From positions 14,463 through 78,462 of the IMG/VR virus record IMGVR_UViG_3300025886_001957: 64,000 nucleotides of DNA; one strand, 5' to 3'. The DNA comes from a virus. Shown here piece after piece: positions 11,601-48,207 of this stretch. The translations under genes and the position numbers were made by a program. The notes under the pieces were generated by a model. The model did no database searches and had not been told where the DNA came from. It saw only the letters and a program-made list of their open reading frames with translations. Each line of letters begins with the position of its first letter. The first letter of the stretch is position 1.

Positions 11601-14600
11601 ACGCAGTACTTGGTCTAGTAACTGTACTAGAAGTTACTCCGTGAACTAATAACGCACTTTTGGCTTGATGTGTAATAATTTGGCCATGGTCAGTCACGGT
11701 AGTTAATCCAGATGAAGTAATACCAACTCCGGTGGTCATTGCAAGAGCCCATACTTTTGTTTGAATAGCACTACCGCTTTCACATAAAAGTGCTGGAACA
11801 GTAAGACCAGTATCAGTTACACTTACTACTTCGTAAGGTGAATATTTGTCGTCACTGTGTAGTATATTAATTTGGCTACCATTCATTGGATAATGTGAAA
11901 AATCGTAAGCATGTACAGTAGTTGTGCCTACTTTGCCTTCATGTCCTACTGAAACAACTGCAATTGGATCACTGGTTATAACATCATCACTGTCATTTTT
12001 ATTTGTAATATCATTTGCACTATCAGTAAATGTATTAGAAGTTACACTAAGATACAATACAGTATTGGCTCCGTCGGTTACAGAATATCGAAAAATACCT
12101 GAAGCATTAGTGCTAGCTTGTTCAAGTACATCATTAGCATCAATGTTTGCAGCATTAAATTCTACAGTGGTAATAGTAACACGTTGATCGACTTGATGGA
12201 ATTTTGCGGGTTGTATCATAGGCTGAAGTAGTGTACCGGCTAGAGGAACTTCATCGGGATCAGAACCTGCAGACACAAGTCCAAATGTACCATAGGAGTT
12301 ATTACCAGTTAACGATCTAATCTGTGAACCATTGTTTGAAAAATATCCAATATGACAATAGTATGTAAACACACTTACTAGTTCTGCTAGAGCATTGTTT
12401 GTTGCAATCACACCATATCCGTTGTCGTTAATTTGAGTATAGTCGTTAGCCAACATTGATTTATTGCCGCCGCCTTGTATTGTAATTAGTTCGTATGAAC
12501 TATCAATAGGTGTATTATATCCTTGATATCCTGATCCATCATTTTTTAATGGTCCACTTTTAGGATCAAGTACAAGTGTACAGCTTGAAATTAAATCCGC
12601 AGCACTATCGCCAAAATCTACAGCAGTTGAATCGTCGGGTACTGTGAAATCTTTAGTCACTGCACTCTGTTTATTTTTATAATCTTTAATTTGATTAACC
12701 TTGTATAGAAACCCTTGAATATAAAAACTACATGGTACTTTTGGTTTGCGTTGTCCTAAAATACTGTCATCAGGTGCTTCGACTTCAATTTCAAAGTCAC
12801 TTATTTTATCAACAATCACTGCTGGAATATTATAAGTATATCCATCAATGAATTGCCCGCCCGCAAACGATTTTGTAGTTCCTTTTGATTGTGAAAAACT
12901 TGAACATGTTTGTGCATATGGAGATCTTGTTAAAATTTGTCCTGTTGGATCAAGTACCATCATAAATCCGCCATGTCGTTGACAAGTAATATTACGTACT
13001 AGCACAGCATCATTACACATAAACACATCCATTTGATTGTTATCTTTTGGATGACTTGATGCATCTGCAGGATTTGTTAAGTAATGATAGCCATAATATC
13101 CATCTACTTTAGTGCTGTCTGTAGGATTAATTCGTTGGTTAAATTCTGTACCAACATTGGCATGTCCAGCTGTGGCAGTTGTAATTCCGTCAATAGTTTT
13201 GTCTCTATAAAAATATGTATACGCATGAGGACTAGTACTTCTGCCAGGTGCTGGTCTTACAATACAACGTCTAAATTCGTCACCTTTAATACTAACATTA
13301 TCAGGTACTCTGATAGGAAATTGTTCTTCATAAATTCCAGATTCAACTCTAACTGAAATTTGTTTCTTTTTAACATTATTTCCGTATTCGATTTCTTCAC
13401 CAATGATAAATTCTTTTACATCTAGTAGATTAACTTGAATTGTATCGCGGTCCATTTGTGGAGCAGTATCAAGACCTTTAACATATGAAAAAACTTCACC
13501 TATTGCGCCTGAAGTTTTACCTCTTATCACTTTTCCTGGATATATGTCAATATTTGGAAATTGGGCATTTTGAGTTCCTGATTGGTCTGTATATTTGTTA
13601 TCACCGCTAGTAACAAACAGTTTGTAATAATTATTTGATTCTAAGTCTTGTACAGTTACTTCAGTTGAGTCGCCAACGTTGCCTGTGACTATTTCGATTA
13701 TTTCATCAAATCGTTTACCTGCATATATATAATATTGATTTGAGGCAAATCCTGATCCTAGTGCTGTTGCAAGTACAGCTAGTGTTTCAGTTTTTGCTTT
13801 TGTTATTCCTGCTACGGTTTCTGTAAGTTGTCCTCTAGAATCAATAGCAAATTCTGCAGAAGGACTACTAAAATATCTATATCCAGCATATTTTGTAAGT
13901 GTATTATGCGCAGATGCTGTAGTACTTGCACTAAGATCCAATCTAATAGCATCTAATATAGTGCCAGTATCACGTCGACATGTAGCTTCGGTATACACAA
14001 AGTTTGGATAAGTTGTATTAATATGAGTAATTACATTATCAATAATAGTAGCTCGTGAACTTTTAATAGCATTAGCTACTGTGCCCCGTACTGTCTCAGT
14101 AGTTAGATCATATCCTACAACAAGTGCTCCGCCACCGCCGTCATTATCAATTGTAGTTGCAGTAGTTTTTACTCCTGAATTTTGATATGTAAGATCTTGT
14201 ACATAAGGACCAATATCAATATCTGATGCCCGTTGTATTAGCTCAGCTTTAATCATAGCTTTTGATATTGTTCTATATGCGTGTTTATTACTTCTTCCTT
14301 TTTTTCCTGGAGGCGAATTACTTTGTATATCATCGCCGTCTGTTGATACATATAAATTAGTAGTGCTTGAATGTGTCATATTATCAACATAAAACTTTGT
14401 AACAGCTTGCTTGTCGTCAGTTCCATTAGGTGTACCGTATCCTTCAAGAGGCGCAGGATGATCATGTAAGTTAATAGCACCAGTTGCAGTATCGCCAGCA
14501 GCATTTAGATACAGAGAATCTCCGTAACCTTTGTTAACTATTAAGTTATCTTCAGTTATTGATGCAAAATGCTTGTTATTATAGGCACTAATAAGTGCAG

Positions 14601-38283: not shown

Positions 38284-38562
38284 ATGAATTTTTTAAGTTT
38301 AGTAACAGATGTAGGATTTCCAATAGCAGGTGCTCTTGCTGCAGGCGGCTTTGTTTTTTTAACACTTAAATTTATATTAGCAGGCGTTACAGATTCAGTT
38401 ACTACACTTAAGAACATTATTGGAAGTTTAGATAACAGAGTACAAACTATGAATAATGATTTAGTAAAAATAGATGCTTTACTAAGTTATGCGTTAAATG
38501 TTAGGCCTAATATAGATAGGATAGCAGCAAATGAAGGGAAAGAAGATGCCAGACGTGACTGA
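38284..38562 (+). CDS. Small membrane protein with GFPI motif (holin-like, BhlA/YvrJ-type)
   Basis: VGFPIAG, TM segment, coiled coil. Confidence 0.6.
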   Translation: MNFLSLVTDVGFPIAGALAAGGFVFLTLKFILAGVTDSVTTLKNIIGSLDNRVQTMNNDLVKIDALLSYALNVRPNIDRIAANEGKEDARRD

Positions 38563-38742: not shown

Positions 38743-39066
38743 ATGTACGAAATTGATCTTGCAAAAATAGTAAGTGATTACGGATTTCCAATAATAGCTG
38801 CTGTTGGCATGGGCTATTTTATATTCTTTATATGGAAGTGGGTTACTGAAACTATTGATCCTGTAATTGGCGAAACAATGGGTACATTAATTAGACTTGT
38901 TGATCGTGTACGCATGTTAGACAACGATCTAATTAGACTAAACAGTAAACTAAGTATGGTTTTAGAATATAGAGCAAAACTTAATCCACAACGTGAAGAC
39001 GAATTACAACGTCTAGTAGATGAATACAAACACTCTTCGGCAGAATTCGATAGTACTGGAAAATAA
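38743..39066 (+). CDS. Paralog of the 38284 GFPI membrane protein
   Basis: YGFPII...LVDRVRMLDNDLIRL aligns with LDNRVQTMNNDLVKI. Confidence 0.6.
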   Translation: MYEIDLAKIVSDYGFPIIAAVGMGYFIFFIWKWVTETIDPVIGETMGTLIRLVDRVRMLDNDLIRLNSKLSMVLEYRAKLNPQREDELQRLVDEYKHSSAEFDSTGK

Positions 39067-39362: not shown

Positions 39363-39589
39363 TATGGATGGATTATAATATAACTCAAGCTGGTAGTAGT
39401 TTTAGAGTTGAAGGAGACTGGCCAGGCGAAGTTATGGGACTTGACAAACAAGGTAATCCTGGATTTAAAGATAATCCTTTATACAAACCTGGCGATGTGT
39501 TTATTGTAAATAATGGCGGATGGCTAGTTAAGACCGACGAAGTTAACGCATTATTATTAAAACACGAATCTACTTCGAAGTCGCAATAA
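39359..39589 (+). CDS. Hypothetical protein
   Basis: ORF track; ATGA overlap. Confidence 0.55.
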   Translation: MIWMDYNITQAGSSFRVEGDWPGEVMGLDKQGNPGFKDNPLYKPGDVFIVNNGGWLVKTDEVNALLLKHESTSKSQ

Positions 39590-41615
39590 ACACACCGTTC
39601 CAATCAGTAGGCAAGTCTTGTGTTTTTTGAAATTCGCAACGTTCTATCCACATGTTATAATATCCTTCTAACTTAGCATCAAAATGTCGCATAAGTTTAT
39701 TACACAAGTCAATTGCTTCGTCAAATTCTTGTAATCTATATGCTTGATGCATACGTTGATGCATCTCTTGGCTTTTGCGTTGCGCTGGAGTTTTTTGAAC
39801 ATCTAACACTGTCCATATTCCAATTCCTATAGTTTTGCCCTTGACTGCTAAGTCATCTATTTTTAAATAGAAAAAGTCATTTTTAGTTTGCTGATATGTA
39901 GCATCACCAACAAGCAGGACACATCCATATTCTTTACATTTACTTTCTATTCGTGCTGCTGTTGAAACAGAATCTCCGAGGACGTCATAACTGTGTCGCT
40001 GTGTACTTCCCATCTCGCCCAAATAACCAAGACCAGTATTAATGCCAGCCCCCATACCAACGGGTGGCCTACCTTCTGCTGTAATTTTCTCATTAAATAA
40101 CTCCACTGCTTTAAGCATGTCAAGACCGCATTGTACTGCGGTTTTTGGATGTTCAGGATCATCTATAGGTGCATTGTGTATGTGCATACTAGCATCACCA
40201 ATGTACTTAATTATCATTCCATCCATATCTAATACTGGTTGCGTAATTGCATCCATGTATGAGTTCATAACCTTTGTTAGTCCTTTTACATCGTCGCCAA
40301 ATGATTCACCTAATGGAGTGAAGCCACGTAAATCACTGAACACAATGCTAACTTCTTTCTTCATACCTTCTTTGATTAGTGCAGGATTTTCCTGTAGCAT
40401 ACGCACCACTGTTGGTGATGCATATCCTGCAAACTGTTTTTTAATTTCTTGTTTTTGTAAAAACTCATCTAAGAACTTAGGTATATATCTTGCTAGTCCT
40501 ACCGTAATTAAAAACACAGCAGGAATAAATCCATCAATCAATATCAGGTGCTCAGAAAACATCCAGTAACTAAATCCTATGCTGCTGCCCACGGACACTA
40601 CAAAGAAGGCTATACCTATGTATGTCCAACGAGCTATTAATATCATTGCAATTCCTACAATAATAAATGCAGCGATTTCACCCCAAGCCTTTGCATCAGG
40701 ATGTCTTACTATATTAGATTCGTTAAAAACTGTACCTAATAGTGTAGCTTGTAATTCGTGTGGAAATATACTTCCTTTAGCTGTAGCAATTGGTTGTGTA
40801 ATACCAGCAGCGGTAGGACCTACAAATACTACAGCACCAGCGAAATCATCAGGTAACTCTACAGCACTTGCTTTTATATTTTGTTGACTCCAATCAATCC
40901 ATACTCTTCCAACTGTATCTGTTTGTAGGAATCCAAATTGTGGTATACGTAGTTTATCTACTCCTAACTCATTTAGTTTAATTTGGAAGCTAGGATCACC
41001 TGCTAGTACACGTAGTACTTCCATTGTTACATTTGGATATAGCGTGCCGTTTGATTCTAGTATTAACGGAGCTCTGCGTGTTACTCCATCAATTTCGGCA
41101 AATGTATTTGTTATACCACTACCATATGCATTATTTTCAATAGTCGGAACGTTTGCAATAATACCCGGAGCATTAGGAATCATGTGCATGTATTCTGGAT
41201 TTATAATTGCTGCACCTGGATTAATTGGAGTATTTTTATCTTTTGTAGAACCTAGCATTGTTACTATCACAGGGTAGTTCTGCATGGTTAATGCAAGTAC
41301 ATCATCTTGAGATGATCTATCATTCTCTGACATTAACACATTAAACACCACAAGTCCAGCGCCTCTGGCATATAAATCCTCTATAAGGCTAGCATAATCG
41401 CCTCTTGGCCATGGCCATTGACCACGTGCCTCTAAACTTGGTTCATCGATGTTTACTGTGTAAATGTTATTTTGTACAGAAGTTTGATTTATAATTAATG
41501 TATCAAAATATTTTAATCGAATACTTTCTAAAAAATTAGGATTTGATAGATATACATAACTTAATACACATAATAATAATACACTCCAGACAGACGAAAA
41601 GATAATTTTATGCAT
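39570..41615 (-). CDS. CHASE2-domain class III adenylate cyclase
   Basis: N-terminal TM, CHASE2 (IDEPSL...GQWPWPR, DGVTRR), 3 TMs, FSDLRGFT, KYIGD, YDVLGDSVSTAARIES. Confidence 0.92.
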   Translation of the reverse strand: MHKIIFSSVWSVLLLCVLSYVYLSNPNFLESIRLKYFDTLIINQTSVQNNIYTVNIDEPSLEARGQWPWPRGDYASLIEDLYARGAGLVVFNVLMSENDRSSQDDVLALTMQNYPVIVTMLGSTKDKNTPINPGAAIINPEYMHMIPNAPGIIANVPTIENNAYGSGITNTFAEIDGVTRRAPLILESNGTLYPNVTMEVLRVLAGDPSFQIKLNELGVDKLRIPQFGFLQTDTVGRVWIDWSQQNIKASAVELPDDFAGAVVFVGPTAAGITQPIATAKGSIFPHELQATLLGTVFNESNIVRHPDAKAWGEIAAFIIVGIAMILIARWTYIGIAFFVVSVGSSIGFSYWMFSEHLILIDGFIPAVFLITVGLARYIPKFLDEFLQKQEIKKQFAGYASPTVVRMLQENPALIKEGMKKEVSIVFSDLRGFTPLGESFGDDVKGLTKVMNSYMDAITQPVLDMDGMIIKYIGDASMHIHNAPIDDPEHPKTAVQCGLDMLKAVELFNEKITAEGRPPVGMGAGINTGLGYLGEMGSTQRHSYDVLGDSVSTAARIESKCKEYGCVLLVGDATYQQTKNDFFYLKIDDLAVKGKTIGIGIWTVLDVQKTPAQRKSQEMHQRMHQAYRLQEFDEAIDLCNKLMRHFDAKLEGYYNMWIERCEFQKTQDLPTDWNGVFIATSK

Positions 41616-41830: not shown

Positions 41831-42313
41831 TTACCACTTTCCAGTTCCTACTCCGATTATAAACACAATTGCTCCTAGTGCTGTTGCTGCCAAGACTGCT
41901 AATACAACAATTGCAAGAGTATCAAGAAATGCTTTCCTTTGTTGTTCTTGCTTATACACAGTTGCTTCACGTTGCTTTCGAATCTTGCGGCGCATTTCTT
42001 TAAGTTCTTCCATAGTGCCCCAGCCAAATCGATAGTTTAATAAGGTTGCAAGTTCTTTTTCTTGTTCCATTAATTTCTTTTCATGTATTAGTAGATTAAA
42101 AGCTTCTTCTTCGACACTACGAGACTGTAATATTTTTTTAAAGATAGGAGGTTTTTTTTGAGACGTTTGCGCATAGCGAAAGTCAGCTGATGCTGTATAC
42201 CATTTGCCTAATTGCTTTGCTACGTTCTCAAAATCTTGCCCTGCATTTACAAATTTTTTAACAGTACTAAACGCTACTGTAGCAGCAGATATTGCTGAAA
42301 TTGGATCTATCAT
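41831..42313 (-). CDS. Hypothetical membrane-anchored protein
   Basis: MIDPISAI N-terminus, C-terminal TM segment. Confidence 0.65.
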   Translation of the reverse strand: MIDPISAISAATVAFSTVKKFVNAGQDFENVAKQLGKWYTASADFRYAQTSQKKPPIFKKILQSRSVEEEAFNLLIHEKKLMEQEKELATLLNYRFGWGTMEELKEMRRKIRKQREATVYKQEQQRKAFLDTLAIVVLAVLAATALGAIVFIIGVGTGKW

Positions 42314-42335: not shown

Positions 42336-42686
42336 TTATTTTCCTATAGGTATTTCAACGCCTATAACAATACCAGTTTTTATATTGCCTGTCCTATTAC
42401 GTTCGTATGCTGGCGCTATAAACATTTTTAAATTTTCTGTATTATATATGACTCTTATATATGGAGAAACTTTATCAAATGTTGTATATCCTGTTACACC
42501 TCCAATTTCAAAACTAAAGTTTTCACCAGTTGGTATATTAATTCCTCCATACCAGCTTAATCTATTAATACTATTATAATATACACCACTTATTGTACTA
42601 CCTTCTAAAAATCGAATATGTGGATGTATGCTATTATATTCGTTAGTTACTCCTAAGTGTGTGCTAAGTGCTAGTCCTAAAATCAT
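42336..42686 (-). CDS. Small outer-membrane beta-barrel-like protein
   Basis: Alternating aromatic/Gly beta-strand pattern. Confidence 0.45.
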   Translation of the reverse strand: MILGLALSTHLGVTNEYNSIHPHIRFLEGSTISGVYYNSINRLSWYGGINIPTGENFSFEIGGVTGYTTFDKVSPYIRVIYNTENLKMFIAPAYERNRTGNIKTGIVIGVEIPIGK

Positions 42687-42698
42687 TTGTAATACCCT

Positions 42699-43886
42699 TT
42701 AATTTTGTAATATCGAAACAGAACAACCTGCTGTATTTGTACAACTTCCAGTAAGACTGTATGTTTGAGCAGTACTACTATTCTGTTCAGTAGTTACACT
42801 ATATGCGCCACCCCCATTGGTTACATTAATTTCCATATTATGTGCGCCGTTGCCGTGTTGCAATGCATCAACTGTATGCCCGTCTCCTGTTACTAGTACA
42901 TCGGCAAATAAACTGTTAGAACTCTTCTGTGTTAACTCAATGTTATTATTGTCGCCGGTTACTTCAATAAATCCCTGGTGCTGTCCATTTTTACGTTGTT
43001 CATGTAATATATCATTATTATCACCTGTAACAATGTTTGCCAAATGTTTTGAACCACTACAGCAACTAGTTTTTTGATCTGTTTGAGTATGTTTATAAAC
43101 ATTATTATCACCTGTAACTGTTACGTATGCTTCGTGATCGCCGCCTTCGATTGTATCAACTGTGCCGCTGCCGTATTTTCCTTGCCAACTTATTACACTG
43201 TTATTACCTCCAATAACAACTCCACGTAGAAAATTACTTTCGCCGTCACCGCCCTGATATACATCAATAGTATTATCATCTCCGATTAGCATACCTTCAA
43301 ATTGTTCGTATTGTGAACCATTTTGTGTAACTGTAAGAGTATTACGATCGCCAGTAATAGGTGTGCTGTCTATGCCACTAGTACTATGATTATTACCATC
43401 TTGATCAATTGTAATAGTGTTATCATCGCCGTTAACTTCTACATATGCTTCGTTATCATCTCCGTCTTGTGAAACTGTAATAGTTTGATCATAGTCGCCG
43501 CCATTGCCTAGCTCGGCATATACTGTATTGTCATCGCCGGTTTGTGTTAAAATAATCTTTGCATTATTACCGTGACTATCTGCCACAGCAATATTTCTAT
43601 CACCAGTTTGACTAATTGTTTGCTGTCCATTCCCGGCACTTTGATATAATCCTATACTATTATTATCACCTGTTTGTGTGTAAGAATTATCTTGATTATT
43701 TCCATGTAGTGTAGCTTTAGCTGTGCTACTATGAAGATGACTTATAGTATTATCTTGGCCATCTTGATCTATAGTCAAGTTGGTATTATTTCCAACTTGC
43801 TTAATATAGATATCATTTGCATAACTACCACTCGCGTTGAATAATAGTAATACTATTGCCAGTGGTTGTACCCAACCTATAATCAT
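42699..43886 (-). CDS. Long curlin-repeat protein (CsgA/CsgB-like); probable start 43886, ORF track extends to 43970
   Basis: Signal peptide and many QxGxxN / GDxN repeats (QTGDNNS, QTGDRNI, QDGDDNE). Confidence 0.8.
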   Translation of the reverse strand: MIIGWVQPLAIVLLLFNASGSYANDIYIKQVGNNTNLTIDQDGQDNTISHLHSSTAKATLHGNNQDNSYTQTGDNNSIGLYQSAGNGQQTISQTGDRNIAVADSHGNNAKIILTQTGDDNTVYAELGNGGDYDQTITVSQDGDDNEAYVEVNGDDNTITIDQDGNNHSTSGIDSTPITGDRNTLTVTQNGSQYEQFEGMLIGDDNTIDVYQGGDGESNFLRGVVIGGNNSVISWQGKYGSGTVDTIEGGDHEAYVTVTGDNNVYKHTQTDQKTSCCSGSKHLANIVTGDNNDILHEQRKNGQHQGFIEVTGDNNNIELTQKSSNSLFADVLVTGDGHTVDALQHGNGAHNMEINVTNGGGAYSVTTEQNSSTAQTYSLTGSCTNTAGCSVSILQN

Positions 43887-44967
43887 AGTATTCAAAGTCT
43901 TGTTGCTCCATGTCGATCGTATATCCATAGTTTTGATCAAGTCGTAATCTAAAATAATTATCGCTTCCATTATCCTCTCGACTAATCTCCCAACTACCTT
44001 CCCATTCTTCTAATTGTATTCCTGTTGTTAAATCTATGCCGGTTTGGTATTGCTTAAAAAATAAAGAATTTTGTATATCTAATTCATTACTAAGTCTAGC
44101 CATAAGTGCTGCATTTAGTGCATCAAGCATATCATATAGTACATCGGCAAAAATGTAATCTGTTTCATCAAGCTGTGTTGACCAAATTCCGTCAATACTG
44201 TCTTGAAGTGCATCAGCATCTAACCCATCAAATTCTAGCATATCGATACCTAAGAAATCATATTGTGCTCTTGCTTTTCTTAGGATTTCAGCTTCTTCGT
44301 CTTCGTAAGGAGTGCGCTTTCTTAGAATTAATAACTGTGTAAGATTTTGTTCTTCTATATCAAGTATAAGAGGTTTTGATGGCGGTTGATTGCTAGTGCT
44401 AGTCATAGTTGTTTGAAAAGATTGATTCATAATAACTATACCTGCATCAGTCTCAACTTCTATTTCTCCTGTATAACATACTCCTTGATCATTGCAACTC
44501 GGTAGTAAGGTTATCATTGATCCTCCAAGTTCGTCAACTACCATTGCAAAATCTGTGCCGCGGACATTAATAGTTGCACTTGGCGTTCTTATATTAACAT
44601 TTTGTCTAAAGTTTTTAGCAATTTGGCCACTAGCATATCTAATTCCTCCAAGGCTTGCTTTAATACTTAATTTACCTATTCCGTTAGCTGGGTCGTATAC
44701 AAATTCATCAATTAATAGTCGACTATGTTCTGTTAAATCAACCCTAGTATCATCAATAAAATCAATTTGCATAGTACCTCGTGCTGTTACAGCAGTGTCA
44801 AGGCTTTGTACACCAATTCCTTTATCGCCAACTACTACGTCATTGCCTCTTTCAAGAACTCCTGACCCTTGTATTTTCCCAATTTGTCCAGCAGAATCAA
44901 CAGCAGCAAATGCTATCGAGGTTAGACAACCTAAGTTAATCAGACTGATTAATATTAACTGAACCAT
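43825..44967 (-). CDS. Secreted FecR-domain protein
   Basis: Signal peptide; FIDDTRVDLTEHSRL, IRTPSATINVRGTDF. Confidence 0.8.
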   Translation of the reverse strand: MVQLILISLINLGCLTSIAFAAVDSAGQIGKIQGSGVLERGNDVVVGDKGIGVQSLDTAVTARGTMQIDFIDDTRVDLTEHSRLLIDEFVYDPANGIGKLSIKASLGGIRYASGQIAKNFRQNVNIRTPSATINVRGTDFAMVVDELGGSMITLLPSCNDQGVCYTGEIEVETDAGIVIMNQSFQTTMTSTSNQPPSKPLILDIEEQNLTQLLILRKRTPYEDEEAEILRKARAQYDFLGIDMLEFDGLDADALQDSIDGIWSTQLDETDYIFADVLYDMLDALNAALMARLSNELDIQNSLFFKQYQTGIDLTTGIQLEEWEGSWEISREDNGSDNYFRLRLDQNYGYTIDMEQQDFEYYDYRLGTTTGNSITIIQREW

Positions 44968-45682
44968 CGTCGCCTGTCATTTCTAAATTTACTTTGTTGT
45001 CATTTATTCCACTTTGTGTTATGTCAATTAGATTGCCGCCTCCTGTGATATCTAATGTAACTGCATGTCCTCCGCTGTCTCCATCGCCACTAATGTCTAT
45101 ATCAATTAAGTTTCCACCGGCGTCGGTACTATTACCTGATGCTACGTCATTTAGAGTAGTTGAACTAGATGTACTACTATTATCTACAGTAACAGTAACG
45201 TCTGCATTAGTCCCGTCTACTTCGGCTTGTATAACATTTCCATCGCCGTCAATTGTAAATGCTGCTACTAAATTTTGTGCATCATTTGTTTCACCAGCAA
45301 AAATATCAAATGTATTATCATCGCCAGTTGTTGTAATGTTAACAGTCACATTATCACAATTAACACCGTTGGTTGAATCACATTTCATATCAACGTTGTT
45401 TGAATCTCCAGTAAATGTCCATGTTCCTGTGTAGGTGCTACCATCAATAATTGCATCTATTTTATTTGTATCACCAGTTTGTGTAATTGCAAAAGTCATT
45501 GAATCGCCAGAGAGCATGGCATCTTTTGTGCTATCGCCAATTTCATTATTTTGCCCATCTTGTATTATATCTAAATCTAATGTGTCGCCAACTTGTTCGA
45601 TATAAATTTCATTTGCTAACAAACTTGATCCAAATAATATTAAAGTAGCAATTATTATTATTTTTATTTTCATTGCCCTCAC
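44936..45682 (-). CDS. Curlin-repeat protein (CsgB-like)
   Basis: Signal peptide; NEIYIEQVG, QDGQNNEI, QTGDTNKI, QSGINDNKV. Confidence 0.78.
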   Translation of the reverse strand: MRAMKIKIIIIATLILFGSSLLANEIYIEQVGDTLDLDIIQDGQNNEIGDSTKDAMLSGDSMTFAITQTGDTNKIDAIIDGSTYTGTWTFTGDSNNVDMKCDSTNGVNCDNVTVNITTTGDDNTFDIFAGETNDAQNLVAAFTIDGDGNVIQAEVDGTNADVTVTVDNSSTSSSTTLNDVASGNSTDAGGNLIDIDISGDGDSGGHAVTLDITGGGNLIDITQSGINDNKVNLEMTGDDGSVNINQSD

Positions 45683-46488
45683 CTAAACTCTTTAAATTTC
45701 CAAAGACCCTTTCTTTCGCCCTCGTACACCATTTCAACTACTCCGGCCTCAATAGCTGCTCTTACAGCATAATTTACTGGTTCGTTAATTGACCATCCAA
45801 TTTCGCTTTCAACTGCTTTAGTTCCCATATCAAAAAACTTAAAAACATCAGTTCCTGAACGATAGCTAGCAATAGTTTTTTCAGTTGCTACACTAAATAG
45901 TACCCTTCCTGTACTAACACTTACTATTCTCATTACTACAGTTACATAGTCAATTCTATATTCATCTTGCAACCCTAGTCCTAAGTAACGTGCTCCAACT
46001 CCTCCAGTTGAAACATTACTATCATAACCAACAATACCGCCTTCCAGTAAAAGTCCTGCAAACAACATTGGCTTAAGGGCAGTTGGACCATGTGGTTTTT
46101 CTTTTTCATATGTATCTCTTGTGTTTCTTATTAGTTGTCGTTCTTTAATCAAATGCTCCATGCCAACACGCTCTACAACTTCAAACCAAGTTCCATTTCC
46201 GACTTCCTGTAATGCTTTAATTACCCATACTTCGGATCCTTGTGTAACTGCACTACTAAGATTTGCTATCTTGTCTGCAGGTTTACGCTGACCCGTTTTA
46301 TCTAAAAAATTATAAACAGCAATAGTCATCTTTTTAGCATCAAGTTCAGGCACGGCATCTAGACGTATCTGCTCAGGTGCCGTTTGTATTCTTGCTGGAC
46401 CTACTGACTTTTTGATATCTTGAGATTTCTGCCATCCAGTACAACTTGTTAGAATACACACAACCAATATTAATATTATATTTTTCAA
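45679..46488 (-). CDS. csgG: Curli secretion channel lipoprotein CsgG
   Basis: Lipobox LTSC; DKTGQRKP, SSAVTQG, LLEGGIVGYD, VSVSTGRV. Confidence 0.92.
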   Translation of the reverse strand: MKNIILILVVCILTSCTGWQKSQDIKKSVGPARIQTAPEQIRLDAVPELDAKKMTIAVYNFLDKTGQRKPADKIANLSSAVTQGSEVWVIKALQEVGNGTWFEVVERVGMEHLIKERQLIRNTRDTYEKEKPHGPTALKPMLFAGLLLEGGIVGYDSNVSTGGVGARYLGLGLQDEYRIDYVTVVMRIVSVSTGRVLFSVATEKTIASYRSGTDVFKFFDMGTKAVESEIGWSINEPVNYAVRAAIEAGVVEMVYEGERKGLWKFKEFR

Positions 46489-46961
46489 AATGCAAACTCT
46501 CCACTGCCCGGAATATTAATTTCAGTATATCCATCATCGCCATCTACAATAATTGTAATTTCACCAGTATCAGGATTTTTAGCCCAGGTTATTTCAGCAC
46601 CTTCAATATTGGCACTCCCGCTATCAGGTGGAACACATTCAGTGTCGTCAGCCTCGCATGTAGCAAACATAGCATCAACAAGTTGCTTGCTCATTGTAGC
46701 ATATATTCTACTTTCAAGATTACGCATAAATTTTGTAAGTATTGAACTATCGCCTTCTCGTTCTAATGCTCTGTTAGCTGCTTCAGCATCTTTACGACGA
46801 TCTTCTCGTCTATTGTACTGTAGTTGTTCTACGCTTAATACATGAGTTGAATATCCATTTCCATAGTGAAATGCTGGGCTTTTAAATCCCCATCCTAGCT
46901 CACTTGAATATGTTACTGATCCTATAAAGATTAGTATAATAATTAATATTGGTAGCTTCAT
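46485..46961 (-). CDS. csgF: Curli assembly component CsgF
   Basis: Signal peptide then ELGWGFKSPAF; FMRNLESRIYATMSKQL. Confidence 0.8.
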   Translation of the reverse strand: MKLPILIIILIFIGSVTYSSELGWGFKSPAFHYGNGYSTHVLSVEQLQYNRREDRRKDAEAANRALEREGDSSILTKFMRNLESRIYATMSKQLVDAMFATCEADDTECVPPDSGSANIEGAEITWAKNPDTGEITIIVDGDDGYTEINIPGSGEFAF

Positions 46962-46973
46962 GCTAATATTTAG

Positions 46974-47669
46974 CTATAGTTTAGGGAATAATAAGTCTCT
47001 ACAAAATATTTCTACATCATTCTCAGGTAATCCAAGACTTTTCATTACAGCTGGTGTATGAGGATTCATCTGTTGATTTGTACAATAATAGTTGTGCATT
47101 TTTTTATTATACTCAACATCTAAGATATCTTGATATGTTGAATACTTGGTAATTTCTTCTAAATAATACACAGTGTTAGATAAAACAATATCAATAATTT
47201 GATCTATTTCTTCTGTAGTACTAACATTACTAGCAGAAATCATCCACGGTGTAAATATATTACTTGCCCATTCGGGTAACACTCTTTCCTTAGTTGGTGT
47301 ATAATCTCTTACACTCTCTTGAAACCCTTGAATCATTGGATGATCTATGCCGCCGCTAGTTTCGCTAAAATCATGAAATGCACCTGTAATTTTATTTTTA
47401 CCGGCAATAACGTCGAAGCCATAAATGGGTCCATTGTTATCCATGGATGGAAACATACAAACATGCATCATCCATAGACCTTTAGTATCCCTAGCATCAA
47501 CTACATCAACATGTGCTCGGCGAATGTGTTGATTAACCCATGTTCTATTAATCCAATTGTTATGATTAAATTGTGCTAATGCTGGTTCATGATATTCAGC
47601 AGCATTATCGTTGAGTAGTTTAATAATTTGATTTTGACAATCAACAAGTTTATTCCATATAAGGCTCAA
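46974..47669 (-). CDS. Ferredoxin-dependent bilin reductase (PcyA/PcyX-like)
   Basis: RRAHVDVVD, MMHVCMFP, PIYGFDVIAG, GAFHDFS, LPEWA..IF, NPHT. Confidence 0.85.
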   Translation of the reverse strand: MSLIWNKLVDCQNQIIKLLNDNAAEYHEPALAQFNHNNWINRTWVNQHIRRAHVDVVDARDTKGLWMMHVCMFPSMDNNGPIYGFDVIAGKNKITGAFHDFSETSGGIDHPMIQGFQESVRDYTPTKERVLPEWASNIFTPWMISASNVSTTEEIDQIIDIVLSNTVYYLEEITKYSTYQDILDVEYNKKMHNYYCTNQQMNPHTPAVMKSLGLPENDVEIFCRDLLFPKL

Positions 47670-48207
47670 TGTCCAACTCCATTAATTCTTGAAATAATTT
47701 AGTTGCAGATTCAAATACATAGATTGCTTCAGTAGCCATATCATCTGTGGTCTTGCTTCTTATTATTTCTTTTAATGCTGCTTTATCGCCGTCAAACTGA
47801 TACATTTGTTTTGACCCTGGTACCTTACGTGCTATCATTTGCCCTCCGCTTAGGTCTCCCATATGAAGTGTATAGATGTGTGCTGTTAACAATACAGGAT
47901 CTTGCATAATTTCTTTCATATGCAAAATATATTCATGAGTGCTAGGTAGTACAACAGGTGATTCGTTGTGATTCCATAATTCGTTAAAATCTTGTTCAAT
48001 TTTTAAATGACGACTTACTCCAGGAAGATCGTCAAATATTCCATGAGAACTTGCAAGTGTTTCTAATAATTTATATTTTTTATGTTGATTCCACAAATAT
48101 GTAGCATATAACTCAGGATTAATTTTTCCACTCATCAATACTTTAACAAATTTTTGTCTTTCTGCATTTCGATGTTGATCATGAGTTAATTCTTTTAATT
48201 TACTCAT
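47650..48207 (-). CDS. Heme oxygenase (HO1/HemO type)
   Basis: LKELTHDQHRNAE proximal His; HIYTLHMGDLSGGQMI. Confidence 0.92.
   Translation of the reverse strand: MSKLKELTHDQHRNAERQKFVKVLMSGKINPELYATYLWNQHKKYKLLETLASSHGIFDDLPGVSRHLKIEQDFNELWNHNESPVVLPSTHEYILHMKEIMQDPVLLTAHIYTLHMGDLSGGQMIARKVPGSKQMYQFDGDKAALKEIIRSKTTDDMATEAIYVFESATKLFQELMELDIEPYME

Follow-up and report, generated by a model that had tools for sequence, protein, structure and literature searches.

The 64,000-nucleotide stretch of viral DNA analysed here (the window; positions 14,463 to 78,462 of the IMG/VR virus record IMGVR_UViG_3300025886_001957, which is 96,158 bp long in full) carries what is probably a copy of the type VIII secretion (curli) module known from marine pelagiphages, in this case in a large, probably jumbo, marine myophage. 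The module is a single uninterrupted co-directional string on the minus strand, running from csgF through to the gene of a cyclase with a CHASE2 sensor domain, and sequence matches together with structure modelling support its being a complete curli system, fibre subunits included. It opens with csgF (46485-46961; 158 aa), whose signal-peptide-bearing product would be secreted to cap the CsgG pore and act in nucleation, and csgG (45679-46488; 269 aa), the putative outer-membrane lipoprotein pore. Two curlin-repeat genes with signal peptides, here called cur1 (44936-45673; 245 aa) and cur2 (42699-43886; 395 aa), are the candidates for fibre subunits 1 and 2; between them lies a gene for a predicted periplasmic FecR-domain protein, also with a signal peptide (43825-44967; 380 aa), and the last gene of the module is that of a class III adenylate/guanylate cyclase with the CHASE2 sensor (39570-41615; 681 aa). 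The cassette is already known, since it was published for ocean phages, fibre genes and all, in 2022 (PMC9599517). What the present analysis adds is modest: a carrier that looks like a jumbo phage, the recognition of the FecR and CHASE2 genes as a bacterial pair, and the small membrane genes that are linked to the module.

The two genes of the secretion apparatus are recognized by their family profiles. CsgG matches PF03783 with 163.9 bits (cut-off 20.8) and the E. coli CsgG structures 3x2r/4uv3/6l7a with E 2.1e-47 over residues 2-265, nearly its full length, and it is 52.5% identical to CsgG of phage HTVC008M and 47.8% identical to that of phage Melnitz. Its reading frame begins with a TTG preceded by GGAG, giving an N-terminus common to the homologues, and the lipobox, read by eye as L-T-S-C at residues 13-16, contains a cysteine (Cys16) that is invariant in nine viral homologues. 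CsgF reaches 34.6 bits against PF10614 (cut-off 25.8) and covers profile positions 3-132 of 132. Its best-conserved part is the N-terminal segment F-K-S-P-A-F..G-N-G-Y, a motif that is invariant in nine viral homologues and that occupies the position of the pore-binding peptide in the E. coli protein. Comparison of CsgF with solved structures was less telling, a profile of the protein matching the CsgF chain of 6l7a weakly (E 0.14) and a phmmer search against the PDB recovering no CsgF. An earlier note on this DNA, made from the sequence alone, had claimed csgF together with a csgG bearing an intact lipobox, and the two profile scores and the invariant cysteine bear it out.

The same note had also seen two distinct signal-peptide curlin-repeat genes, and here too it was right. 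For cur2 the Curlin_rpt profile (PF07012) gives 69.1 bits in seven stretches (cut-off 20.7), and the protein matches the structure of Pontibacter korlensis CsgA (8c50) with E 1.6e-8, the match to E. coli CsgA (8enq) being weak. For cur1 the assignment comes through its family: the top two PDB matches of a profile built from 11 orthologues are 8c50 (E 1.5e-4) and 8enq (E 0.023), several orthologues (56-69% identity) bear PF07012 in precomputed annotation, and cur1 and cur2 are paralogues at 34% identity (E 8e-16). Relatives of cur1 in metagenomes number at least 980. Across the whole 96-kb contig, matches to Curlin_rpt occur in the cur1 and cur2 frames only. Hardly any column is invariant in the cur1 family other than those of the repeat's Q, G and N, and a motif x-G-[DNSGQ]-x-N comes back in cur1 every 22-28 residues through its first five repeats. 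Sec-type hydrophobic leaders are apparent, by inspection and by conservation, on all five of CsgF, CsgG, cur1, the FecR-like protein and cur2. In both curlin-repeat proteins the mature chain starts directly after an A-x-A type cleavage site with a shared motif, N-[DE]-I-Y-I-x-Q-V-G (N-E-I-Y-I-E-Q-V-G in cur1 and N-D-I-Y-I-K-Q-V-G in cur2), without a Gly-rich N22-like segment. The mature proteins are very acidic, with isoelectric points of about 4.1-4.2, 13-18% Asp plus Glu and an Asp-rich turn motif G-D-x-N, and cur2 is long, with an irregular C-terminal half. Four of the five secreted proteins contain cysteine pairs, as would suit an extracytoplasmic location; those of cur1, CsgF and the FecR-like protein are shared by their homologues, and cur2 has four cysteines.

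An AlphaFold2 model of cur1 computed on the family alignment is all-beta, with some 18 strands in a strand-turn-strand arrangement, a predicted local distance difference test score (pLDDT) of 75 and a predicted template modelling score of 0.73. Compared with solved structures by VIA-align, it matches 8c50_A with Z 17.5 over 188 aligned residues at 26% identity, the list's highest, and lower rows hold other beta-helices, including phage tail spikes. What the fold comparison indicates is thus a beta-solenoid and not a curlin in particular; it is sequence and gene context that identify the protein as a curlin. Taken with the leaders, the family matches and the gene order kept in 34 of 37 viral loci (see below), the solenoid model supports the claim of a phage that supplies fibre subunits of its own along with the pore.

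The genes of the module are packed tightly. The TTG start of csgG lies over the TGA stop of csgF. The cur1 frame opens at a GTG at 45682 (248 aa), but the start is most likely the ATG at 45673, which stands behind a candidate Shine-Dalgarno sequence, AGGTGAGGG, and gives a product of 245 aa, the length of its nearest database relative; the gap between csgG and cur1 is then probably 5 nt. The cur1 and FecR-domain genes overlap by 32 nt. Similarly, the cur2 frame reaches 43970 (423 aa), and its start is most likely the ATG at 43886 (395 aa), from which it would overlap the FecR-domain gene by about 62 nt; its homologues overlap that gene by 49-61 nt. The overlapping reading frames described earlier are therefore present at csgF/csgG, cur1/FecR and FecR/cur2, with csgG and cur1 probably separated by the short gap, and the curlin genes do come after csgF and csgG as had been said, except that they are not adjacent to one another, the FecR-domain gene standing between them and overlapping both.

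Our survey of IMG/VR suggests that this arrangement is a stable one. A CsgG-profile scan found at least 586 contigs encoding a CsgG relative, and among the best 80 loci, 37 have at least 7.5 kb of sequence downstream of csgG. In all 37 of these, cur1, the FecR-domain gene and the cyclase gene are present; cur2 is present in 34, so that the four downstream genes occur together in 34/37 loci, and the order is the same across the best 80. The co-directional, partly overlapping gene string is kept across hundreds of viral contigs. Among cultured phages, a close CsgG is found in HTVC008M and Melnitz only. The gene order of these two, CsgF-CsgG-curlin-FecR-curlin-CHASE2 cyclase, is identical to the one described here, and the six proteins are homologous with E values from 1e-15 to 1e-223. 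The copy in the window differs from the pelagiphage module in having three extra open reading frames (116, 160 and 65 aa) between cur2 and the cyclase gene, in the Hsp20-ClpS-heme oxygenase-bilin reductase genes upstream, in the inverted position of the small membrane genes downstream of the cyclase, and in its carrier, which, unlike the HTVC008M-type carriers, is apparently a jumbo myophage.

Much of this had been reported before. The viral module is known from pelagiphages and methylophages, namely HTVC008M, Melnitz, pelagimyophage MAGs (metagenome-assembled genomes) and podophages of the HTVC023P type. Wittmers et al. described the CsgF-CsgG-CsgA/B-FecR-CsgA/B-cyclase module in myo- and podo-pelagiphages, recorded components of it from every one of the 65 GOV2.0 stations, reported that related copies are transcribed in metatranscriptomes from the Pacific, and proposed roles in aggregation, in 'sibling capture' and in defence against superinfection (PMC9599517). 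Tominaga et al. had in 2020 listed csgA, csgG and csgF (printed as csrA, csrG and csrF) in a T4-like marine viral genome (PMC7198788). Zaragoza-Solas (2020, PMC7029224) and Buchholz (2022, PMC9004378), on the other hand, took the module to be without CsgA/B, and between them their papers proposed uptake (Zaragoza-Solas), 'sibling capture', and control of lysis timing through a pinholin/secretin (Buchholz). The caution of the earlier note that the theme was not wholly new was correct, and indeed understated, as the fibre genes, the FecR-domain gene and the cyclase were in print already (PMC9599517; for csgA also PMC7198788).

Compared with the curli systems of E. coli and Salmonella (csgBAC-csgDEFG), the phage module has a homologous CsgG lipoprotein pore, a CsgF-family cap and, like CsgA and CsgB, two paralogous secreted curlin-repeat subunits. 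Unlike in those systems, the subunits are without a Gly-rich N22-like leader, the first repeat following directly on the signal peptide, they are larger (about 225 and 372 aa when mature) and much more acidic, and a FecR-domain gene and a cyclase gene are built into the operon. Another parallel is CsgA of P. korlensis, which heads the PDB sequence matches of cur1 and of cur2 alike and ties for the best structural match of the cur1 model. With it, as with other long multi-repeat curlins, they share D/N/Q-rich repeats of the Q-x-G-x-x-N type; the identity to 8c50 is only about 26% over the aligned part.

From these likenesses one can presume how the module would work. During infection, CsgF, CsgG, the curlins and the FecR-like protein would be exported via the Sec system of the host; CsgG would be lipidated, sorted to the outer membrane and assembled there into a nonameric channel, which CsgF would plug from the outside by its conserved N-terminal peptide. 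Unfolded curlins would traverse CsgG with no help from a CsgE adaptor, in the manner of alphaproteobacterial systems, and would then polymerise at the surface of the infected cell to give curli-like fibres. The FecR-like protein and the CHASE2 cyclase would constitute a periplasmic sensor pair of bacterial type, grafted onto the secretion genes, and would probably couple an envelope signal or a fibre-related one to cyclic AMP (cAMP). Amyloid formation, export through CsgG and an ecological role, be it aggregation, shielding from superinfection or grazers, or sinking, are what we infer from the gene content.

Several observations weigh against a working, fibre-forming curli system. The cur1 protein taken alone stays under the Pfam Curlin_rpt threshold, so that of the profile checks proposed in the earlier note those for CsgG, CsgF and cur2 came out above their cut-offs, and that for cur1 was marginal, at 12.9 bits alone and 20.8 bits (cut-off 20.7) when the three repeat matches of a six-frame scan are summed. 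Structurally, the root-mean-square deviation (rmsd) of 8c50_A from the cur1 model is 8.8 A, its Z score is tied with that of a SufD-type flattened beta-helix (Z 17.5, rmsd 2.6 A), and a Foldseek search of the model against the PDB returned no match at E<=0.001. The conserved cysteines of cur1 lie about eight residues apart and, if oxidised in the periplasm, would hinder passage through a narrow pore. In the pore itself the constriction residues are changed relative to E. coli: when the protein is aligned with 3x2r, the E. coli segment K-P-Y-P-A-S-N-F is matched by K-P-A-D-K-I-A-N-L, and of the residues that we take, from the work on 4uv3, to line the constriction loop in E. coli (Y51, N55 and F56) the Tyr is replaced by Ala and the Phe by Leu, only the Asn being kept, and that Asn varies among viral homologues. 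The constriction may accordingly be wider or otherwise altered. In further difference from E. coli and Salmonella, CsgE and CsgC were not found in the 96-kb record, itself a fragment (PF10627/PF10610, none at E<=1; CsgD not searched). This last point is not disqualifying, because alphaproteobacterial curli systems also lack CsgC, CsgD and CsgE (PMC9599517). In the cyclase, residues ~545-556 read G-D-S-V-S-T-A-A-R where bacterial enzymes have G-D-x-V-N-x-A-x-R; the replacement of Asn by Ser is found in seven of the eight phage copies aligned, this one included, against Asn in all seven bacterial sequences, and the Asn is what we take, as in class III cyclases, to be the transition-state residue. 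Finally, OM43 cells infected with Melnitz showed no clumping in cytograms or in transmission electron microscopy (Buchholz et al., PMC9004378).

Some of these points would fit other explanations. It could be that the curlin-repeat proteins are exported but do not polymerise, and serve as soluble or surface-bound beta-solenoids with the function of adhesins, ion-binding proteins or decoys. Their strong acidity and Asp-rich G-D-x-N turns, together with the irregularity of the C-terminal half of cur2, would suit such proteins, and a fold search cannot separate a curlin from other beta-helices. Against this, the best PDB sequence matches are two solved CsgA fibre subunits, the Q/G/N ladder of the repeat is the most conserved feature, and the genes sit with CsgG and CsgF, for which curlin is, to our knowledge of type VIII secretion, the only known cargo. 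We regard non-polymerising solenoids as unlikely.

Another possibility is that CsgG and CsgF have been repurposed as a gated outer-membrane channel, for lysis timing or for the passage of molecules, and that the curlin-repeat proteins are not its cargo, along the lines of the earlier proposals (PMC9004378, PMC7029224). The altered constriction loop, the CsgE gate not found in the 96-kb record and the Melnitz cultures without clumping would all be in keeping with it, as would two linked small membrane proteins that resemble holins or PspB, a resemblance that is a weak lead. However, the proposals assumed that the fibre genes were missing, and two signal-peptide curlin-repeat genes are present; these are conserved along with the pore (34-37 of 37 loci) and translationally interleaved, and CsgF, a protein required to nucleate fibres but dispensable for assembling the pore, has been kept with its conserved N-terminal peptide. 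A repurposed channel thus appears improbable. That the cluster is structural, with the curlin-repeat proteins serving as fibres or decoration proteins of the virion, is very improbable indeed: the modules of HTVC008M and Melnitz do adjoin baseplate and tail genes, and beta-helices are common in phage tail spikes, which appear in the lower VIA-align ranks, but the conserved N-terminal Sec-type leaders on both proteins are incompatible with virion assembly in the cytoplasm, and the neighbours in the window are chaperone and bilin genes, not structural ones.

The preferred reading, a curli module with its own fibre subunits, also has to account for the FecR-domain and cyclase genes. The FecR-like protein matches PF04773 with 32.2 bits (cut-off 24), the domain lying at residues 60-146, and belongs to phrog_37870 (E 6e-90). 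Its leader looks cleavable, Pfam finds the FecR domain only, and neither an anti-sigma domain nor a membrane helix was found. A reading as an iron regulator of the ferric citrate FecR anti-sigma type is therefore not supported, the product being a secreted FecR-domain protein. The AlphaFold model of the protein is poor (pLDDT 55.6, below 50 in the C-terminal half). Its C-terminus (G-N-x-I-x-I-I-Q) was also tried as a curlin half-repeat and discarded, hhalign against cur1 aligning only the signal peptides, with a probability of 2.6%. The cyclase matches PF05226 (122.4 bits) and PF00211 (60.8 bits), and keeps both metal-binding Asp residues, the Lys/Asp pair and the Arg, roles that we presume from class III cyclases.

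A FecR profile scan over one genome per prokaryote species found 253 relatives, of which 80 were kept. The top four, filed in GTDB-species MAGs of Pirellulales, Rhodobacteraceae, Flavobacteriaceae and Luteolibacter (L012-L015), have the curli module and many further genes in common with the phage. They almost certainly come from phages and were placed in bacterial MAGs by a binning error, and host calls made from them would be wrong. In the remaining loci, the bacterial relatives match the phage protein only at about residues 20-210, and the C-terminal half of some 170 aa is common only to the relatives in phage modules. Of 72 bacterial loci, 16 have a full CHASE2-cyclase gene no more than 300 nt away from the FecR gene and 27 have one inside flanks of about 10 kb, and a six-frame profile search found CsgG or CsgF near the FecR gene in none of 76. 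The FecR-domain protein and the CHASE2 cyclase are thus a common bacterial pair without nearby curli genes. A bacterial origin of the cassette as a whole, considered as well, was rejected, the top four 'bacterial' matches being binned phage contigs and the other 76 loci having no CsgG or CsgF. Pairs of this kind have been described in Burkholderia, where the 'BiofilmReg' operon encodes a LysM-FecR protein and a CHASE2 histidine kinase (PMC5192318), and in Sinorhizobium, with the CHASE2 cyclases CyaD1/D2/K and the FecR-domain product of SMc02177, a target of the cAMP regulator Clr (PMC5498481). In the phage as in these bacteria, the gene of a secreted FecR-domain protein accompanies that of a CHASE2 membrane sensor; the phage genes differ in the curli genes around them and in the extra C-terminal half of the FecR-like protein. 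A complex prediction for the CHASE2 domain (residues 25-325) with the FecR domain (residues 24-215) scored 0.01, which is evidence neither way.

One contig from an alphaproteobacterial MAG (L016:8949-11814) has a curlin-like gene, a gene for a full-length FecR-like protein and another curlin-like gene in a row; its flanks contain no CsgG, CsgF or CHASE2 cyclase, and the only CsgG-family match noted in that genome, distant, on another contig and with an internal stop, is uninformative. A bolder and rather doubtful idea is that the FecR-like protein is the periplasmic handler of curlins that a system without CsgE and CsgC would otherwise lack, working as an escort or anti-aggregation factor, and at the same time the partner that presents the ligand to CHASE2, so that cAMP would report curlin load or fibre assembly, and that the whole is a self-monitoring 'sense and secrete' cassette that has moved among at least three phage lineages, the jumbo phages included. 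It is suggested by the overlap of the FecR gene with both curlin genes, by the curlin-FecR-curlin triad without pore or cyclase in the alphaproteobacterial contig, and by the pairing of the N-terminal FecR half with CHASE2 cyclases in bacteria.

As to the carrier, the record encodes a DNA ligase, an endonuclease, a clamp loader, a ribonucleotide reductase, an endolysin and tail-fibre proteins. Among cultured phages, the nearest relatives of the clamp loader are in the jumbo phages PA5oct (55%) and Atu_ph07 (47%), the genomes of which are 287 kb and 490 kb, respectively, and HTVC008M is absent from the top matches for this single marker gene, which would place the carrier with neither the HTVC008M-type myophages nor the HTVC023P-type podophages. 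CheckV estimates the completeness of the 96-kb record at 26%, and the same neighbourhood (Hsp20-ClpS-heme oxygenase-bilin reductase-csgF) is found on an ENA contig of 322,495 bp. From these three observations together, the carrier is probably a jumbo myophage and not a phage of the HTVC008M type of about 140 kb, as judged with one marker gene. The G+C content is flat at about 0.35-0.36 over the module and its flanks, and the module would therefore be an old resident of the phage and not a recent insert. DNA of the stretch is found in marine metagenome runs from 13 studies; no RNA datasets are listed for the stretch, nor for csgG and cur1. Directly upstream of csgF, on the same strand (46974-48207, minus), lie genes for a ferredoxin-dependent bilin reductase and a heme oxygenase, and of the 70 related viral loci that extend far enough upstream, 23 have the fixed order Hsp20-ClpS-heme oxygenase-bilin reductase-csgF.

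Of the three small open reading frames between cur2 and the cyclase gene, the first (o116; 42336-42686, minus strand; 116 aa) matches phrog_3600 (PagP) with E 1.2e-5, and a protein atlas gives a lead, likewise weak, to PagP/PagL clusters; it is possibly a PagP-like small outer-membrane beta-barrel, and it is without an obvious signal peptide. It is an accessory gene of some module copies only, a relative standing beside cur2 in ten of the best 80 viral loci and also in one of the mis-binned contigs (L013). The second (o160; 41831-42313, minus strand; 160 aa), an accessory gene whose product has a predicted C-terminal membrane anchor, belongs to phrog_32327 (E 8e-12), and in other loci it is found either upstream of csgF or after cur2. 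Beyond the cyclase, on the plus strand, are two paralogous genes for small proteins with a single membrane pass and a coiled coil (38284-38562, 92 aa, and 38743-39066, 107 aa), with an open reading frame of 69 aa between them. Both belong to phrog_18771 (E 1e-30 and 2e-29), a family with an N-terminal G-F-P-I motif. The pair is linked to the module in nearly every one of the best 80 viral loci. It stands immediately ahead of csgF in some and, in others as in the window, past the cyclase gene in inverted orientation. Wittmers et al. draw one or two 'histidine kinases' (HK) at its position (PMC9599517); Pfam finds no kinase domain in either protein. The atlas neighbours of the family are viral clusters, one of them auto-named as a PspB fragment, with weak leads to the YvrJ and BhlA-holin families.

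Signals for the transcription of the module were sought as well. A TAAATA motif upstream of csgF had been taken in the earlier note for one of late type, a proposal that did not hold: on the minus (coding) strand of the window TAAATA occurs 51 times where about 92 copies are expected from base composition. The copy in question, CTAAATA at 46973-46967, ends 5 nt from the ATG of csgF. A late promoter at csgF was rejected on both grounds, the counts of TAAATA and CTAAATA being under the composition expectation and the copy at 46973 abutting the start codon. Scans for sigma-70 consensus promoters and for terminators gave results at the background level of shuffled sequence, and the module may be transcribed by read-through from upstream genes. 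Four exact copies of TATAAATA are present on this strand of the window, and two of them precede a gene start by about 30 nt (5095 and 8615).

The value of the present copy is in part confirmatory, in that the fibre genes are present, contradicting two earlier papers that called the module incomplete. In addition, the cassette would appear to reach the jumbo phages, and its FecR/CHASE2 part would be a sensor pair taken over from bacteria, not a regulator of iron. As has already been proposed in print, amyloid made by phages on abundant ocean bacteria could alter their aggregation, sinking, grazing and superinfection, and hence the flow of carbon.

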